Below the pieces are notes generated by a model that saw nothing but the letters and a program-made list of their open reading frames with translations, was not told the DNA's origin and ran no database searches. Positions 2,418 to 31,360 of a stretch of 32,000 nt of DNA are shown one piece after another. How positions within the stretch are numbered: position 1 is the first letter of the stretch; each line of letters starts with the position of its first letter. Origin of the DNA: a virus. The stretch is taken from positions 7,481-39,480 of the IMG/VR virus record IMGVR_UViG_3300014963_000841, one strand, 5' to 3'. A program made the position numbers and the translations under genes.

Positions 2418-5400
2418 TTAATAGTTATCAAGCATTAATTCCATTGATTGAGCGTTAGTGATGTCCTCAGTAAATGCTCTGTAAGTTGTATCACCCATTT
2501 TAAGCACGATGTCCGCTGCTTGTTGAGTAACCGACATCTTACCGCCGTTAAATGAAACAGATGGATCATACCCTGCTAATCGACCTAACTGGCCGTCCAT
2601 ATTACCAAGCTCATCAGTGATAGCCCCGTTGATATCTTGACCAGTGAATGCGTCGATAGCTCCTTGGGCCATATAGCGCATTGAACGGGCTACTTGGTCC
2701 GCTTTGCTATCAATACCAATGATGAAACCTTTGTCCGTATAGATACCGAACTGACGGAATACACGGGATGGTGATTTGATACCAAGCAAGGCTTTAGCTC
2801 CATTAATCGCATTACTTACCGCACCTTTAACCGCTGAAATCAGCTTGCCGGCTGCGGATGTAACCCCGCTAACGAAACCGCTAATAAGGTTAGCACCGAC
2901 GCTTGCAGCTTGCCCGACGAATCCACGGGCTGCACTAAGAGCACCGCTGAACGCTGAGCGGACCGCTGAAATGATACGCTGACCGGCACTTGATACCGCT
3001 GATACCACGGCACTAAATCCGCTAGTGATAGCTGACTGAATAGAGCTCATGGCACTTGATACTGCTGATCTAACAGTGCTCCAAGCTGAGCTGATAATGC
3101 TCTGAACAGAGTTCATGGCACTTGAAATGATTGACTGGATAGCTGACCATGTACTTGATACAGTGCTAGCAATCGCACTCAATACGCTTCTGATAAGCGA
3201 CAAGATAGCGTTCCAAATCGCACTGATAGTGGCTTGAATAGCTGACATAATTGACGAAATAGCCGCCTGAACCTGCGAGAAGTTACCAGTAACCAATCCG
3301 ACAATAGCAGCTAATACACCAGCTAAAACAGCTTGGATACCCGTCCAGATAGCGTTCCAAATCGCTTGGATAGCTGACAAGGTGCTTGAAATAATGCTTG
3401 AGATACCGGTCATGATAGGTGACAGAATAGACATGATTGTGTTCCAAACGGTTGAGAACACTGTCTGGATAACTGTCCATGCTGCTGACCAAATGGATTG
3501 AATCACGGCAATCCCGGCACTAATCACACCGCTAATGGCAGTCATAGCTCCGCCAGCGATTTGTTGAAGTAATGCCCAAAGTGCTTGGAATGGAACAGCT
3601 AACAACGCCCACGCTGCATCCCAAATCGCACGGATGAAATCTATCCCCGCTTGGATAATCGGACCAATAGCATTGATACCGGTTGAAACAAGCGACTTGA
3701 TACCTTCCCACACAGTAGACAAGATGGTTTTGAACGTTTCCCACGCTCCAGACCAGTCGCCTTGTAAAATCTGCATGCCCATCTTGATGATGTTGAGAAT
3801 AACTTCAATGACTGTTGAAATGACCGTTGTGATCATTTGCCAGCTCGTTGAGAACAGCGTAATCAACAAATTCAATCCAGTTTGAACGACTGGAAGAATA
3901 GCGTTCATGACATTCTCAATCATGCTCTTGAACATGTTCCAGTAAGTCGTCGCCGTCTGCATAATCAAGGCGTGGTTTTCGTTCCAGAATGACGTTAACT
4001 GGCCCCAGATTGACATGACAAACGACACAATGGCTTGAACAGCGCTAGTGATTGCACTCTTGATAGTTTCCCAGATTGCAATGACTTGTGAACGGAAATT
4101 CTCGTTATGATTCCACAAATCAACAAGCGCAGCTACTACCATCCCAACCGCTAACGCAATCCCAGCGAACGCAGCAAGGGCAGCAGCAGAAACACCACTG
4201 GCAGCACTACCAAATGAAACCATCATGGCTTCGCCACCTTCAAAAGCCATTGAAAAGCCTTCTGCTGCTGCGGTACCACTTGAGAAGAACCCAGCAAGCG
4301 AGCTGATAGCACCACCAATTGTGCTTAGTGCAGAAACGACATTCCCAACCCAAATGATTAAGGTCCCAAGCACTGTGATAATAGGCCCCGCTGCTCCAAC
4401 GATAAGCGCTGCCCATTTAACCCAGCCGTCCACTGGCAGATTGTCCCAGATAGTCCCTAGAACACGAACCACATTGTCTTTAAACGTGATGATAGTCTGC
4501 TTCATGTTTTCCATAAGCTGCTTGATATTAGCTTCGTTGTTACCAAGGCCGGCCACTAAGTTCTCAGCGGCTGCTTTCATGGAATTAAACGAACCCGAAA
4601 CGGTTGTACTTGCTTCTTTAGCAGTCGTTCCGGTAACTCCCAATCTATCTTGAGTAATACCGATGGCATCAATCAAGGTATGAAATGGAATATCACGGAT
4701 ATTGTCAGCCGTAGCTTCAAATTCACCATTCAAGACACCAGATTCATTGACCAAACGAGCCATTTCGGACATGGTACCACCATAACCAAGTTTCAGATTG
4801 TCCAGCATTGAATAGTTGTCCTTGGCAAAACCTTGATAAGCGTTTTGAATGTCCGTCATGTTAGTACCGAACTTGTTCGCATTATCTGACATTTGGACAA
4901 GGGCTTTATCCCCGTATTTCGCAGCCTTGGCAGTATCACCGCCTAGCCCTTGTAACAAGGTAGCTGAGAACGACGTCACCTGCTCCATATAGCGGTTAGC
5001 AGACACACCAGCTGTCCTATAGGCTCGGTTGGCATTCTCAATGACGTTGGTGCCCTCACGGTCCATTGTGTTATAGAGCTCTTGGGCTTGCTGTCTGGTC
5101 ATGCCGTAGTCTCTGGCAAGGGCATTGACACTTGAACCATTCTGTTTGAATAGCGTAGAAACACCACCCAAAGATTGCTCAAGGTCTGCATAGCCTTTGA
5201 TGACGGCAGTTAACCCACCGACCATCGGCAATGTGAAAGCCGTGGTCATTCCAGCGCCGACTGATTGCATGGCGCTACCAACTGACTTTAAACTGCTACC
5301 AACTTGAGCAAGCATGCCCCCAGACTGATTTTTTAAATCAGCAAGGGCAGACTTAGCAGCATTGACACCGTTGGTGAAGTCGCTTGAATTGGCACGAAGT

Positions 5401-7477: not shown

Positions 7478-7778
7478 TTAGCTCACCTCTTTTCAATCTG
7501 ATTGCGCCCTTAATCGGTGCGTCAATGCGTTCGATAGGGTAATATTTCTTGCCCTCGTATAGAGCGTAGTCGAATGGCTTCTGCTCTTGACTAAATCGGC
7601 ATATCATGACCACGTCTGACCTACTCCCATAGGCTTCAAAGACACGTTGTTGATCAATGAAGTTAACCAAACAAGGCACAATCTTACTAGACTGTGCCTT
7701 TTCTTCGTGTTTATCAGTTATCGGGTTGTAAGTCGAAACGCCTTGATTCACTAACTTGATGCGGTGCGGTGTTTTCAT
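7470..7778 (-). CDS. Head closure / head-tail adaptor protein
   Basis: 102-aa ORF in the connector gene block. Overlapping starts and stops indicate translational coupling. Confidence 0.55.
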   Translation of the reverse strand: MKTPHRIKLVNQGVSTYNPITDKHEEKAQSSKIVPCLVNFIDQQRVFEAYGSRSDVVMICRFSQEQKPFDYALYEGKKYYPIERIDAPIKGAIRLKRGELNG

Positions 7779-14269: not shown

Positions 14270-14686
14270 TCAACGTTCCACAACTAATTTGCCATCTCTA
14301 TACAATTCTGCAAATGCTAGGATAGCATTATTTAGCAATCCTTGAAAGGCTGTCCTTTCGAATCCGATTGCTTGGGCAATTTGCCAGTTTGGTTTCGGTG
14401 GGTATGCCAGATATTTCTCTATCAGTATTCTGCGATAGTCTGGACGATATAGCCCACTAACTGCTTGCTCTATGGCTTCTAGCTCGTTCATAGCATCGAC
14501 ACGCCTAACTGCGATATTTTCCACTGGTCTACTCACTCCGCTGCCACCTCTTGGCATAAAAGTGAACTCTTGTGTAATCTTCTGCTCAGCGCTATCGTGT
14601 GCTATCTCTCGCCAGCGTGGATATTCTCGAAGTTTCCGCTTGCAACCTCTGATAGTTGCTTTCTCATCAATTTCCGGCAATAGCAT
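14270..14686 (-). CDS. arpU: ArpU-family late transcriptional regulator
   Basis: 138-aa ORF directly upstream of terS. The segments KRKLREYPRWREIA and LIEKYL resemble the ArpU/sigma-region-4-like family. Confidence 0.75.
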   Translation of the reverse strand: MLLPEIDEKATIRGCKRKLREYPRWREIAHDSAEQKITQEFTFMPRGGSGVSRPVENIAVRRVDAMNELEAIEQAVSGLYRPDYRRILIEKYLAYPPKPNWQIAQAIGFERTAFQGLLNNAILAFAELYRDGKLVVER

Positions 14687-14700
14687 TGTTCTGTCCTCTT

Positions 14701-14760
14701 TGGTATAATAGTAGTGTTGACTTCCAAAGAGTGCCGGCCATTGTGTCGGTCTTTTTTGTT
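14701..14760 (+). ncRNA. Candidate short antisense transcription unit A (extended -10 plus terminator)
   Basis: TGGTATAAT at 14701-14709, a CCGGC/GTCGG hairpin at 14734-14749, then CTTTTTTGTT. It is antisense to the arpU leader. Confidence 0.3.
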
Positions 14761-14835
14761 TGGCCCAAAAAACATTAAGAAGTTTTATAAGAGAAAGATT
14801 AATGTATTTGTTTTGGGTTGTCTCTTGAGCCTTTT

Positions 14836-14847
14836 ATCACCTCCTTC
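14836..14847 (-). promoter_or_regulatory. Orphan Shine-Dalgarno-like site (GAAGGAGGTGAT) with no usable start codon
   Basis: A 12-nt match to the complement of the 16S rRNA 3' end. There is no ATG, GTG or TTG within 4-13 nt downstream. Confidence 0.4.
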
Positions 14848-15054
14848 TAGCCATCGACACCAGCAAGATCTTTGGCTTTTGATTAGTAATGCGATATCTA
14901 TGAGAAAGAGGGTGTTTCACATCCTTTTTTCTTAAATTTGCTGGGTTTTGTTTGAGCAAGGTCTGTCAGCTTGCTCAGTGTTGAAAAGTGTCCAAGCCAC
15001 TAAAAATCTATATATTTATTTAGCTTCATTTTTTTAGTGTATTTGACAGACAAT

Positions 15055-15095
15055 GACTGGCAAGAGGAATCGAACCTCTTATAACCATTCCAGCC
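15055..15095 (-). ncRNA. tRNA-like minihelix E2 (acceptor-like stem plus canonical T-arm; no D or anticodon arms)
   Basis: The minus strand reads GGCTGGAA-TGGTTATA-AGAGG-TTCGATT-CCTCT-TGCCAGTC. It has G53, a T54-T55-C56-R57-A58 loop and C61-type geometry. Confidence 0.45.
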
Positions 15096-15392
15096 TAGAC
15101 ATAGTGAAATCATTATCGGGGATATTCCCCTTTCGTTTTTTGAAATAATACAAGAATTAAGTCGGTGAATTATGGAGATTTCTGACCTATATCTACTTGC
15201 AGGCATAAGCCTTGAATAATCACGCCACCAGTAATGCGTTTTAGATTTTGTGAATAATAAATAAAGGAATACCTACTTTCTATATTTTAGATTTACTGGA
15301 TTTGGGTAGCATCAACGACCAGTCACGCTTCTGCCGATTTGAATGAAAAGAAATCAAAAGGCTCCTCTTTTCTAATATATATTGACTGGTAA

Positions 15393-15434
15393 TAGCTAGC
15401 GAGGGAGTCGAACCCTCATAGACCGTTCTAGCTA
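15393..15434 (-). ncRNA. tRNA-like minihelix E1 (acceptor-like stem plus canonical T-arm; no D or anticodon arms)
   Basis: The minus strand reads TAGCTAG-AACGGTCTAT-GAGGG-TTCGACT-CCCTC-GCTAGCTA. It starts in the stop codon of ORF 15432..15638. Confidence 0.45.
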
Positions 15435-15638
15435 CACGCCTAACGCATAGGCTTTATATAAGGCTTTTCTAACCGTGGTCTTATTACGCCCCACCTCGCC
15501 TTTAGTTCGGTACTCAAGCATAATTCGATCAGCATCATCATCCAGTCTATCGGGCCAATCGTAGTTATTGAAGACATAATCAACGATTTTGCTGAATAAG
15601 TCTCGTGACAGCATCCCTTCCATTTGAATAGCCTTCAA
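15432..15638 (-). CDS. Hypothetical early protein, sharing a module with the middle of ORF 15663..16139
   Basis: In this 68-aa ORF, MEGMLSRDLFSKIVDYVFNNY aligns with LEGIISVELFNDLQDYLSTNY of the upstream gene. Confidence 0.5.
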   Translation of the reverse strand: MKAIQMEGMLSRDLFSKIVDYVFNNYDWPDRLDDDADRIMLEYRTKGEVGRNKTTVRKALYKAYALGV

Positions 15639-15662
15639 AGGCGTTAGGGCGGCTTTCTCTGC

Positions 15663-16139
15663 TTAGCAACAATTGATGGCGTTTTGGACTTTGTTAGCTT
15701 GCTTCTTATCGCAACCTTTAATGTCTCTGATGTACTTGTTTAGGTCGTTAGGGTGTTCCTTGCGTAGTCCTTCCACTTCCTCCCGGAATCGCTTAAACAG
15801 TCCCTCTGGCAGTCCTGCGTTGATTTTATCCAAAAATGGGCGCGTGGTTTTACCTCTTGTGTAATTAGTAGACAGATAATCTTGCAGGTCGTTGAATAGT
15901 TCAACGGAAATAATGCCTTCTAGTCTATCGACAGTCGCTGGCGATAGACTCGCACGTTCAACGACTGCGCTATTAAACGCTTGATAAATGATACGTGCTT
16001 GTAACTCACTGCACTGTTTCACATCTTGGAAGAACCGCTTATAATCTCTCGGGTGTGCTTTCCTCAGTGATGCATGCTCGCTGACTAACCGTTGATATAA
16101 TTCTGGTGTCAGCCCTGAATATTGGTATGTTTTACTCAT
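15663..16139 (-). CDS. Hypothetical early protein with an internal duplication
   Basis: The 158-aa ORF has two ~47-aa repeats: LYQRLVSEHASLRKAHPRDYKRFFQDVKQC... and LFKRFREEVEGLRKEHPNDLNKYIRDIKGC... Confidence 0.55.
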   Translation of the reverse strand: MSKTYQYSGLTPELYQRLVSEHASLRKAHPRDYKRFFQDVKQCSELQARIIYQAFNSAVVERASLSPATVDRLEGIISVELFNDLQDYLSTNYTRGKTTRPFLDKINAGLPEGLFKRFREEVEGLRKEHPNDLNKYIRDIKGCDKKQANKVQNAINCC

Positions 16140-29917: not shown

Positions 29918-31360
29918 ATGGCAACACATAAAGTCGCTATCTATGTCCGAGTATCGACCACATCGCAAGTTGATGAAGGCTATTCTATCGACGAGCAAAA
30001 GGCAAAGTTGACAAGCTACTGTGAGATTAAGGACTGGAATGTTTATGAGATATACACAGACGGCGGTTTCTCTGGGTCTAACACGGAACGCCCTGCCCTA
30101 GAGCAGTTAATAAGGGATGCAAAGAGAAAACTGTTTGATACTGTTCTAGTGTATAAGCTAGACCGTTTGAGCCGCAGTCAGAAAGATACACTCTATCTGA
30201 TTGAAGATGTCTTTCTGGAGAATGATATAGAATTTGTCAGCTTGCTCGAAAACTTTGACACCTCAACGCCATTCGGTAAGGCAATGATTGGGCTCCTCAG
30301 TGTGTTTGCCCAGCTAGAAAGAGAACAAATCAAGGAGCGTATGCAGCTAGGCAAACTTGGACGGGCAAAGTCCGGCAAGGCCATGCAGTGGTCAAAGACT
30401 TCCTACGGCTACGACTATGTCAAAGAGACCGGCACGCTATCAATCAATCCATATCAAGCTTTAATCGTCCGAAAAATGTTCAAATGGTATTTATCAGGTA
30501 TGTCGATAACCAAGCTCAGAGACGCCCTCAATGAGCAATATGGGCAAGATAAAGAGTGGAACTATAGAACGGTGCGGGTTATCCTCTCAAACCCGGTATA
30601 TTGTGGATACAATCAGTTTAAAGGGCAGATATTCCCCGGCACTCATGAGCCTATCATATCAGAGGACGACTTTAACAAGACGCAAGAGGAAATCAAAACA
30701 AGACAAAGGACAGCCGCCCAGCGTTTCAATCCAAGGCCATTTCAAGCTAAATACATGCTTTCTGGTATAGCTCAATGCGGTTACTGTTCAGCCCCTCTTG
30801 CTATCAAGCTAGGCATGAAACGAAAAGACGGCACGCGCTTAGTCAAATATGAGTGTAAGCAGCGACACCCAAGGAAGACCAAGGGCGTGACTGTTTACAA
30901 CAACAATGAAAAGTGTGATTCTGGGTTTTATTTCAAAGACGATATAGAGCACTTCGTCCTAACTGAAATCAGCAAACTACAAACTGATTCAGATTATATC
31001 GACAAGCTATTTTCAAACACTGACAAAGAGACGATAGACCGGGACAGCTACCAGAAACAGATTGATAATCTAACCGCTAAAATTAGCAGGCTTAATGACT
31101 TGTATATTGATGACCGGATTTCACTGGAAGAATTACAAAAGAGGTCAAGCGACTTCATGGCAGAAAGAACAGCACTTGAAAAAGAGCTAGACGCTGACAC
31201 CTCTCTCAAAGCTGTAGAGCGAAAGAAAGATATTAGACGGGTGCTTGACACCAAGGACATCTTCACGCTTGATTACAATCAGCAGAAAGCCATAGCACGC
31301 GCCTTGATAAGCAAGGTTAAAGTTACTAGTAAATCCATCGTTATTTTATGGAAATTATAG
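29918..31360 (+). CDS. int: Large serine recombinase (phage integrase)
   Basis: Resolvase-type N-terminus VAIYVRVSTTSQ with the catalytic Ser, then a recombinase domain, a Cys-rich zinc-ribbon region (CGYCSAP...YECKQRH...CDS) and a coiled-coil C-terminus. Confidence 0.92.
   Translation: MATHKVAIYVRVSTTSQVDEGYSIDEQKAKLTSYCEIKDWNVYEIYTDGGFSGSNTERPALEQLIRDAKRKLFDTVLVYKLDRLSRSQKDTLYLIEDVFLENDIEFVSLLENFDTSTPFGKAMIGLLSVFAQLEREQIKERMQLGKLGRAKSGKAMQWSKTSYGYDYVKETGTLSINPYQALIVRKMFKWYLSGMSITKLRDALNEQYGQDKEWNYRTVRVILSNPVYCGYNQFKGQIFPGTHEPIISEDDFNKTQEEIKTRQRTAAQRFNPRPFQAKYMLSGIAQCGYCSAPLAIKLGMKRKDGTRLVKYECKQRHPRKTKGVTVYNNNEKCDSGFYFKDDIEHFVLTEISKLQTDSDYIDKLFSNTDKETIDRDSYQKQIDNLTAKISRLNDLYIDDRISLEELQKRSSDFMAERTALEKELDADTSLKAVERKKDIRRVLDTKDIFTLDYNQQKAIARALISKVKVTSKSIVILWKL

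Follow-up and report, generated by a model that had tools for sequence, protein, structure and literature searches.

The DNA analyzed here is a stretch of 32,000 nucleotides (nt), positions 7,481 to 39,480 of the IMG/VR virus record IMGVR_UViG_3300014963_000841, hereafter the window. It belongs to a prophage of the Streptococcus salivarius/thermophilus type, whose genes are carried on the minus strand. Two short tRNA-like elements, E1 and E2, lie there between a gene for a DUF1340 protein and a gene for an ArpU-type late transcriptional regulator. A preliminary description, covering positions 15055-15434, had taken them for armless tRNA-like minihelices with canonical T-arms in a gap free of open reading frames (ORFs). 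From the analyses below, we conclude that E1 and E2 both represent one conserved RNA element of ~45 nt within the sense-strand phage mRNA. Their parts are as follows, with position 1 being the first letter of the window.

15389..15435, minus strand: E1, a mimic of the top half of a tRNA, delimited by covariance models and sequence
15434-15428, minus strand: E1 5′ strand, UAGCUAG, with a possible extra G·U pair 15435/15392
15427-15418, minus strand: E1 linker, AACGGUCUAU
15417-15413, 15412-15406 and 15405-15401, minus strand: E1 T-arm, consisting of GAGGG, the T-loop UUCGACU and CCCUC
15400 and 15399-15393, minus strand: E1 bulge G and 3′ strand CUAGCUA, followed by the tail UUAC
15434-15427 and 15400-15393, minus strand: strands flanking the E1 T-arm as first quoted, TAGCTAGA and GCTAGCTA
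15050..15097, minus strand: E2, a mimic of the top half of a tRNA, delimited by covariance models and covariation among relatives
15095-15090, minus strand: E2 5′ strand, GGCUGG
15089-15080, minus strand: E2 linker, AAUGGUUAUA
15079-15075, 15074-15068 and 15067-15063, minus strand: E2 T-arm, consisting of AGAGG, the T-loop UUCGAUU and CCUCU
15062-15061 and 15060-15055, minus strand: E2 bulge UG and 3′ strand CCAGUC, followed by the tail AUUGU
15095-15088 and 15062-15055, minus strand: strands flanking the E2 T-arm as first quoted, GGCTGGAA and TGCCAGTC

E1 and E2 share a common plan. An acceptor-like stem of 6-8 base pairs (bp), with G-C as its innermost pair, is followed by a 10-nt D-loop-like linker (AAYGGUUNNN), a canonical T-arm, and a bulge of 0-2 nt ahead of the 3′ strand. 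The T-arms were found with the sequences and at the coordinates first proposed, with a closing pair of the G53-C61 type and a UUCRAYU loop. The 5′ strand was likewise complementary to the strand that follows the T-arm, as had been noticed, whereas the supposedly plain spacer of 8-10 nt between them turned out to be the conserved D-loop-like motif. The A:G mismatch reported at the same inner position of both stems is better read as the linker junction, where the first A of AAYGG faces the G bulge in E1 and the UG bulge in E2, and the two positions do not match exactly.

The motif GGTTCGAYTCC occurred twice in the window compared with 0.02 occurrences expected, and the 25-nt pattern GAAYGGT-N7-GGTTCGAYTCC also occurred twice, compared with 0.00 expected. 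The two elements differed from each other by five compensatory double changes that kept the pairing, three of which were in the T-stem. Single-sequence folding gave the minihelix as the minimum-free-energy structure of both elements. However, the folding-energy z-scores were modest (−1.2 and −2.2 for E1 and E2, respectively), so that folding energy alone is no proof, and the proof comes from comparative evidence. A covariance model (CM) built from a 24-sequence alignment of the family described below (R1) retrieved only E1 (60.1 bits, E 1.5e-14) and E2 (36.6 bits) from the 32 kb, and a second model (R2) also retrieved only these two (54.6 and 46.7 bits). Among relatives of the prophage, the acceptor-like stem of E2 covaried (GGCUGG/CCAGUC, GACGGG/CCCGUC and GGCGAG/CUCGUC), and so did its T-stem (AAGAGG/CCUCUU, CAUGGG/CCCGUG and AAGAAG/CUUCUU). 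In some relatives, E2 has no linker. The five double changes, together with the covariation over 80 family members given below, bear out the proposed armless acceptor/T-arm minihelix.

Next, we compared the elements with known RNAs. E1 and E2 share with tRNA the T-arm, with its G53-C61 pair and UUCRAYU loop, and complementary strands on both flanks. However, only 10 nt separate the 5′ strand from the T-arm, leaving out the D-arm and the anticodon arm. ARAGORN called neither a tRNA nor a transfer-messenger RNA (tmRNA) in the window, and no Rfam 15 family reached its gathering score there; the elements are thus not tRNA genes, as the preliminary description had held when it anticipated that no full tRNA would be called. 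The Rfam tRNA model gave no match even at E ≤ 10. At this threshold, only a 17-nt tmRNA match (the E1 T-arm alone, 14.1 bits) and a weak alignment to the tymovirus tRNA-like structure were obtained, and the Y-RNA models gave no match within 14700-15800. Of the tmRNA features, neither an mRNA-like region, a resume codon, a tag ORF nor pseudoknots were seen in the elements, whose halves are joined by the 10-nt linker. The G3·U70 pair that confers alanine identity had no counterpart, as no stem position carried a conserved G·U and the stems varied freely. Similarly, the features of YrlA, namely a Ro60-binding stem, a D-arm and an adjacent rsr gene, were missing: the element is 45 nt long without a further stem, and its neighbors encode DUF1340 and the ArpU-like regulator. 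Both elements possess their own covarying 5′ strand and hence differ from the 3′ tRNA fragments of attP/attB sites. Neither E1 nor E2 is followed by a U-run, and no minus-strand intrinsic terminator was called there. In contrast, two features of the t-elements of plant mitochondria were found, namely the GGTTCRANYCC motif within a tRNA-like fold that has no decoding capacity and a location at a cistron boundary on the transcribed strand.

A scan of IMG/VR with the pattern GAAYGGT-N7-GGTTCGAYTCC yielded at least 120 loci. Among the matches listed, to which the counts of streptococcal loci given here and below also refer, only two of ~120 were real tRNAs, and ~70 were streptococcal phage loci with E1 directly 3′ of the DUF1340 stop codon. 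The remaining loci belong to unrelated phages that have the same linker and T-arm between flanking strands of 6-7 nt that are wholly different and yet complementary. The same truncated architecture was found in more than 60 unrelated phage lineages of diverse hosts. In an alignment of 24 hand-registered members, 94.4% of the stem cells were paired (42-50% in slid controls), and 93 cells were changed on both sides compared with 27 ± 4 in shuffles. In 80 CM-aligned members, 94.3% of the cells were paired (44-52% in slid controls), with 340 double changes compared with 103 ± 8. Covariation of the acceptor-like stems, which had been named as a check on the proposal, was thus present for E2 in the close relatives and strong in the wider family. 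Since the members were collected by a pattern that fixes the linker and the T-loop, the conservation of these two parts is partly imposed by the search. Copies found only by CM (extra Predator and L159 copies, E2 variants and the Streptococcus equinus phage PY1) nevertheless keep the T-loop UUCGA(C/U/G/A)U, and their linkers carry GG (AACGGUU, AGUGGUU, ACUGGCAGAG and AUCGGUUUUU).

The anatomy of the family is uniform. The acceptor-like stem has 6 bp in 41 of 64 members and 7 bp in 21, and 77 of 80 members have G-C as the innermost pair. Next comes the linker AAYGGUUNNN, which is like a D-loop minus its stem. It is followed by a 5-bp T-stem with a 7-nt T-loop, and then by a bulge that spans 0-1 nt, or 2 nt in E2, and can often lengthen the T-stem by one pair. 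The 3′ tail had no part in the selection of members. In 62 members, its first position was a purine in 53 (A in 43), the second was C in 53, the third was variable with C in only seven, and the fourth was A in 40. This R-C-N-A tail closely resembles the tRNA end R73-C74-C75-A76 while avoiding a full CCA. When one genome from each of 185,579 species was searched with a stricter GAAYGGTT/GATTCC pattern, 26 exact matches were obtained (~12 true elements and five tRNA-Arg genes of candidate phyla radiation bacteria), compared with 61 exact matches in viral contigs for the narrower GAATGGTT variant. Therefore, the family is phage-associated. A locus from a metagenome-assembled genome labeled as Staphylococcus (L132) was set aside: nothing in the phage collection matched it, and the composition of its contig points to misbinning. 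No published description of the element family was found in full-text literature searches or in Rfam 15. In part of a 2023 catalog of 10,006 candidate viral structured RNAs, tRNA-like candidates are mentioned only generically, and the motif may be there unnamed (PMC10690425). Although tRNA-like processing signals as such are already known, one of such uniform make, armless yet with an elbow and shared by DNA phages from many phyla, is apparently new.

We then asked at which level, DNA or RNA, the element is conserved. The stems had been picked on Watson-Crick pairs alone, which is a strand-symmetric criterion. Among the non-canonical stem cells, G·U was found in 57 and A·C in 8. Because each G·U is an A·C mismatch on the opposite strand, this excess is consistent with a structure of the sense transcript but not with a site in double-stranded DNA. 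The three stem substitutions that separate the window from its closest isolated relative, phage SA-TP2, likewise all yield G·U on the minus strand. In addition, out of 52 cases, the longest open frame in the adjoining 600 nt shared the strand of the element in 39 on the upstream side and in 42 on the downstream side (~78% co-oriented). The G·U excess and the co-orientation with flanking genes therefore indicate an RNA-level feature.

The position of the element relative to genes was also consistent. Elements mostly start 0-13 nt past a stop codon. Where an upstream ORF of at least 60 amino acids (aa) ended nearby, 31 of 39 stems began between −7 and +13 nt relative to the stop codon of that ORF, with a median of ~6 nt past the stop, and the next same-strand ORF started at a median of ~30 nt downstream of the element. 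The genes themselves are unrelated, as they encode a head maturation protease followed by a capsid or scaffold protein, RecT, an ArdC-like protein, a tail protein or DUF1340. The upstream proteins of 10 diverse loci fell into unrelated PHROGs and the downstream ones look unrelated by inspection, so that no associated protein was found among them.

Several phages carry arrays of the element. Mycobacterium phage Predator (L184, NC_011039) has seven copies in 70 kb, all on the plus strand among the small genes gp42-gp52 (36841-40435) and none elsewhere in the genome. Six of these occupy intergenic gaps and the seventh falls within the 5′ end of gp49 as annotated; the start of this gene is probably mis-called. 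Most of the Predator elements are followed by ACGA and a hairpin, and all seven are unannotated. In IMGVR_UViG_2778261335_000001 (L159), five copies fill five consecutive gaps, and downstream of each copy come ACGAY, a hairpin and a ribosome-binding site, GAGGAGG. L137 contains three tandem units of a small ORF plus an element in 1.7 kb, L151 has two copies 34 nt apart, and Mycobacterium phage Wildcat has two copies; L179 and L180 are further multi-copy loci. The Wildcat (L181) element at 4499-4544 overlaps the annotated start of gp144, and the element at 1330-1378 of Streptococcus phage PY1 (L183) overlaps the 31-aa CDS0068. The gp144 start and CDS0068 are probably annotation artifacts over non-coding RNA. 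Some members adjoin co-oriented real tRNA genes, lying ~130 nt upstream of them, as in the following two loci.

L008, same strand: element at 1577-1601 and tRNA-Arg at 1746-1819
L095, same strand: element at 3563-3587 and tRNA-Pro at 3732-3810

In the window, the surroundings of E1 and E2 comprise the following features.

15432..16139, minus strand: DUF1340 gene (phrog_1814 via its SA-TP2 homolog; Pfam PF07067 in two pieces, 5.7e-43 and 2e-26)
15052..15390, minus strand: optional noncoding cassette of ~339 nt, which starts with ACCAGUCAAU, ends with GCCAGUCAUU and is closed by E2
14989..15048, minus strand: hairpin directly 3′ of E2 with arms UGUCAAAUACACUAAAAA and UUUUUAGUGGCUUGGACA, followed by CUUUUC (inverted repeat I1, 18 nt, 83% complementary)
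14270..14686, minus strand: ArpU-type late transcriptional regulator gene, whose SA-TP2 homolog is annotated as a transcriptional regulator
14240-13698, minus strand: terminase small subunit gene (Terminase_2 Pfam match)

With the DUF1340 gene upstream and the ArpU-type and terminase genes downstream, E1 and E2 thus lie where the early gene block ends. The TAG stop codon of DUF1340 (15434-15432) falls within the 5′ strand of E1. This gene also contains an in-frame TAA (15665-15663) where relatives have a Tyr codon, which splits it into ORFs of 158 and 68 aa, so that it may be a pseudogene in this prophage. The DUF1340 protein resembles an internal duplication. The description of the gap as ORF-free was essentially right, as its sole ORF (15206-15000, 68 aa) is disrupted by indels in relatives. 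Phage SA-TP2 is 84-87% identical in the region and keeps both elements, and it alone among the isolated relatives has the E1-cassette-E2 region. The S. thermophilus phages have only the hairpin upstream of ArpU in common with the window. For the S. equinus phages, distant search gave only an 85-nt match inside the cassette, and the divergent minihelix of PY1 was found by reading and by CM.

About half of the ~70 related loci possess the cassette, which comes in several length variants. Two related ~90-nt units lie within it, together with several stems, one of them between ACCAGUC (15390-15384) and GACUGGU (15324-15318) in the computed consensus fold, and a covarying hairpin GGGGAAUAUCCCC (15130-15118). 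Recurring complementary CCAGUnA and UnACUGG motifs in the cassette resemble the strands of E2 itself. A coding function of the cassette was considered and rejected on account of frame-breaking indels among relatives and the lack of a conserved ORF. In 30 streptococcal loci, E1 is directly followed by UUGUCUGUCAA, whereas 38 others carry an insert, so that the TTGTCTGTCA motif lies 165-406 nt from where E1 starts; the insert ends in E2 in the majority of these 38, and the same UUGUCUGUCAA follows. Three of the 30 (L068, L075 and L086) are hybrids of a 5′ E1 and a 3′ E2 with non-complementary acceptor strands, and from their sequences they look like products of recombination between the paralogous T-arms in which the cassette was deleted. 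The hairpin at 15048-14989 keeps its arms in relatives with a loop of 3-24 nt, and together with its U-rich tail it may end the early transcript.

In mitochondrial "tRNA punctuation", intercistronic tRNAs direct the processing of polycistronic transcripts; to our knowledge, this arrangement has so far been tied to mitochondria and a few eukaryotic long non-coding RNAs (lncRNAs). The determinants for RNase P, RNase Z and the CCA-adding enzyme are known from synthetic minihelix substrates, with the coaxial acceptor/T-arm stack being the minimal substrate. The phage elements keep these determinants, namely the acceptor/T stack, the T-loop, the GG and the purine-C tail, and they appear to be the natural form of the synthetic minihelix with a D-loop mimic retained. 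We put the chances at about even that they are RNase P/RNase Z punctuation signals in phage mRNA, a proposal drawn from sequence comparison. The element would mimic the part of a tRNA, or of the tRNA-like domain (TLD) of tmRNA, that is read by processing enzymes, with the acceptor-like stem stacked on the T-stem to give 11-13 bp, and the GG of the stemless AAYGGUU linker would dock on the T-loop to form the "elbow". As the D-stem and the anticodon arm are absent, the element cannot decode. RNase P would cut at the 5′ edge of the stem, and RNase Z or exonucleases would cut past the discriminator-like purine; these cuts would split the upstream cistron from the following RNA and free a small minihelix. 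Accordingly placed, E1 would mark the end of the last early gene (DUF1340), and E2 the end of the cassette before the hairpin that precedes the late-regulator gene. A cut in E1 at 12 bp from the T-loop would separate the last sense codon from UAG, and because the stop codon sits in the E1 stem, the resulting DUF1340 mRNA would be stop-less.

There are precedents for such steps. In plant mitochondria, RNase P and RNase Z cleave t-elements at the ends of mRNAs, in some cases inside or at the end of a reading frame so that the stop codon is removed (PMC1920247), and the tRNA-like module of Mycobacterium smegmatis YrlA is cut by RNase P and receives CCA (PMC4201824). Of the idea of RNase P/RNase Z/CCA punctuation as first put forward, the intercistronic placement on the sense strand, the arrays in gene gaps and the R-C-N-A tail all fit, while the cutting itself is what we infer. 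Several observations weigh against punctuation, however. The acceptor-like stem mostly has 6 bp rather than 7, which gives a stack of 11-12 bp, and YrlA RNAs without the 7-bp acceptor-like stem of the M. smegmatis type were not detectably cut by RNase P (PMC4201824). E1 and E2 carry A-U rather than A-C at tail positions +1 and +2. A cut 5′ of E1 removes the DUF1340 stop codon, which looks costly unless intended, and after an RNase P cut the 3′ end of the upstream mRNA would have no structure to protect it. The 40 nt downstream of the elements were no more stable than controls (p = 0.21), so that a downstream hairpin belongs to some arrays only and is not a general part of the module. Lastly, a D-loop-like linker so strongly conserved may hint at a partner besides the processing enzymes.

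The released minihelix, maybe CCA-tailed, could also be the functional product and work in trans as a decoy or sponge, an idea already raised in the preliminary description, which we consider rather unlikely. The targets proposed for it are a factor that recognizes the acceptor end or elbow of tRNA, for example toxins that modify the acceptor end (from defense or toxin-antitoxin systems), the CCA-adding enzyme, T-loop modification enzymes, and SmpB with trans-translation. The elbow-forming linker and the R-C-N-A tail are indeed conserved more strictly than cleavage alone would perhaps require, the TLD of the Rfam tmRNA model can be aligned end to end with members, and the family is strongly enriched in phages. 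However, the stems show no conserved aminoacylation identity element such as G3·U70, no protein gene is consistently associated, and copy number and position resemble operon punctuation. Since the same processing steps are needed, action as a decoy is an extension of punctuation and not an exclusive alternative to it. We hold it unlikely that the element is, in addition to any punctuation role, a minimal tRNA/TLD mimic that is excised by host RNase P and RNase Z and then acts in trans as a CCA-tailed decoy; its targets could be defense toxins, SmpB-dependent ribosome rescue or tRNA quality control. A role in cis that involves no tRNA enzymes, as an intercistronic stabilizer, an exonuclease barrier or a modulator of termination and re-initiation, seems distinctly unlikely to us. 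The median spacing of ~6 nt between stop codon and stem is typical of structures that act on ribosomes, and the element precedes the next start by 15-60 nt, yet a plain hairpin would suffice for such roles and the invariant T-loop, the GG linker and the RCNA tail would go unexplained. Furthermore, the frame is not consistently continued through the element and the E1 stop codon lies within the stem, on which grounds a readthrough or recoding signal was also rejected.

A site acting in DNA would be either a recombination or module boundary, or a pseudo-att site for tRNA-targeting integrases, with the T-arm serving as inverted binding sites around a 7-bp overlap. The presence or absence of the cassette between E1 and E2, the three hybrid loci expected from recombination in the shared T-arm, and the location at gene boundaries speak for such a site; we nevertheless find it highly improbable in view of the G·U to A·C ratio (57 vs 8) and the strand bias relative to genes. 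Moreover, stems that covary freely around a fixed loop and linker are the pattern of a folded RNA, the hybrids are rare (3 of ~70 among the matches listed) and look like by-products of homologous recombination between paralogs, and the integrase-like ORF (29918-31360) is 15 kb away from the elements. Decay into functionless remnants of tRNA or tmRNA, or origin as attP-type 3′ tRNA fragments, could account for a tRNA-type T-arm with a 3′ acceptor strand, as in integration-site fragments. This explanation is scarcely credible, however, as each element has its own complementary 5′ strand and is under strong purifying selection with compensatory changes, so that the covariation already contradicts it. 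The truncation is also identical in unrelated phages, and the elements adjoin neither an integrase gene nor the prophage ends. Intact tRNA genes at these positions in related phages would have pointed to decay; instead, the truncated element occupies the same place in the ~70 streptococcal loci, and none of those listed has an intact tRNA there.

Returning to RNase P/RNase Z punctuation, the closest known counterparts are the plant mitochondrial t-elements (Forner et al. 2007, PMC1920247). Like the phage elements, these are non-decoding tRNA-like structures with the GGTTCRANYCC T-arm motif and an acceptor-like stem, found at cistron boundaries. Their ends have been proven to be mRNA termini made by RNase P and RNase Z, whereas cleavage of the phage elements is what we infer. 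The t-elements occur in organelles, a few to a genome, as degenerate cloverleaves whose shape varies; by contrast, the phage elements have a uniform 45-nt design with an AAYGGUU linker and neither D-stem nor anticodon arm, and occur in many bacterial virus lineages. The tmRNA TLD similarly combines an acceptor stem and a T-arm with a stemless, GG-bearing D-loop analog. Positions 1-374 of the Rfam tmRNA model (RF00023), with the middle deleted, align to the Predator and Wildcat copies, where the linker ACGGUUUC faces cuGGaUUC and the tail ACGA faces ACCA. The scores of these mycobacteriophage copies were 18-21 bits compared with a gathering score of 47, and tmRNA differs in its mRNA-like region, tag ORF, pseudoknots and conserved G3·U70. 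The Rfam mascRNA model aligns at 20 bits compared with a gathering score of 42.5. Both alignments are resemblances, not memberships. In mascRNA and MEN-beta of MALAT1-type lncRNAs, as in our proposal, a tRNA-like module within a longer transcript is used by RNase P and RNase Z to make the flanking RNA ends; however, they are eukaryotic cloverleaves with an anticodon-like arm and have no homology to the phage elements. YrlA resembles the phage elements in being a non-coding RNA of bacteria or phages that imitates the acceptor, D and T portions of a tRNA (Chen et al. 2014, PMC4201824), and YrlA-like RNAs are known in mycobacteriophages too (PMC4201824). It differs in having a D-arm and a Ro60-binding stem with GNCGAAN0-1G, and in being a separate gene that adjoins rsr.

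If RNase P and RNase Z do cut the elements, tRNA punctuation would be a strategy of tailed phages of Firmicutes, Actinobacteria, Bacteroidota and Proteobacteria, and the elements would be the smallest natural substrate yet seen. Cleavage would then account for the division of some phage operons into mRNAs that are each stable on their own, and annotators would gain a new non-coding feature, several copies of which are now hidden under spurious coding-sequence calls. An excised RNA acting in trans would be a new type of phage-encoded tRNA mimic and a class of phage counter-defense or host-takeover RNA. In either case, a widespread and strongly covarying structured RNA family is still absent from Rfam 15. 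The family is also a natural experiment on the tRNA features required by processing enzymes, with its 6-bp stem, its stemless GG linker and its R-C-N-A tail lacking C75.

The plus strand of the region carries two further hairpins. At 15118-15140, a hairpin GGGGATATTCCCC with TTTCGTTTTTT after it has the form of an intrinsic terminator in the antisense direction, and its stem covaries in relatives (GGGGA/TCCCC, GGAGG/CCTCC and GGAGA/TCTCC). A plus-strand small-RNA gene running through the complement of E2 was considered and rejected, as no plausible plus-strand promoter was found. At 14733-14760, a strong terminator-like hairpin lies just upstream of the start of the ArpU-like gene. On the minus strand, its G·U pairs would turn into A·C, and the surrounding 60 nt are 97-98% identical in many S. 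thermophilus phages. This hairpin may be the end of an antisense transcript.

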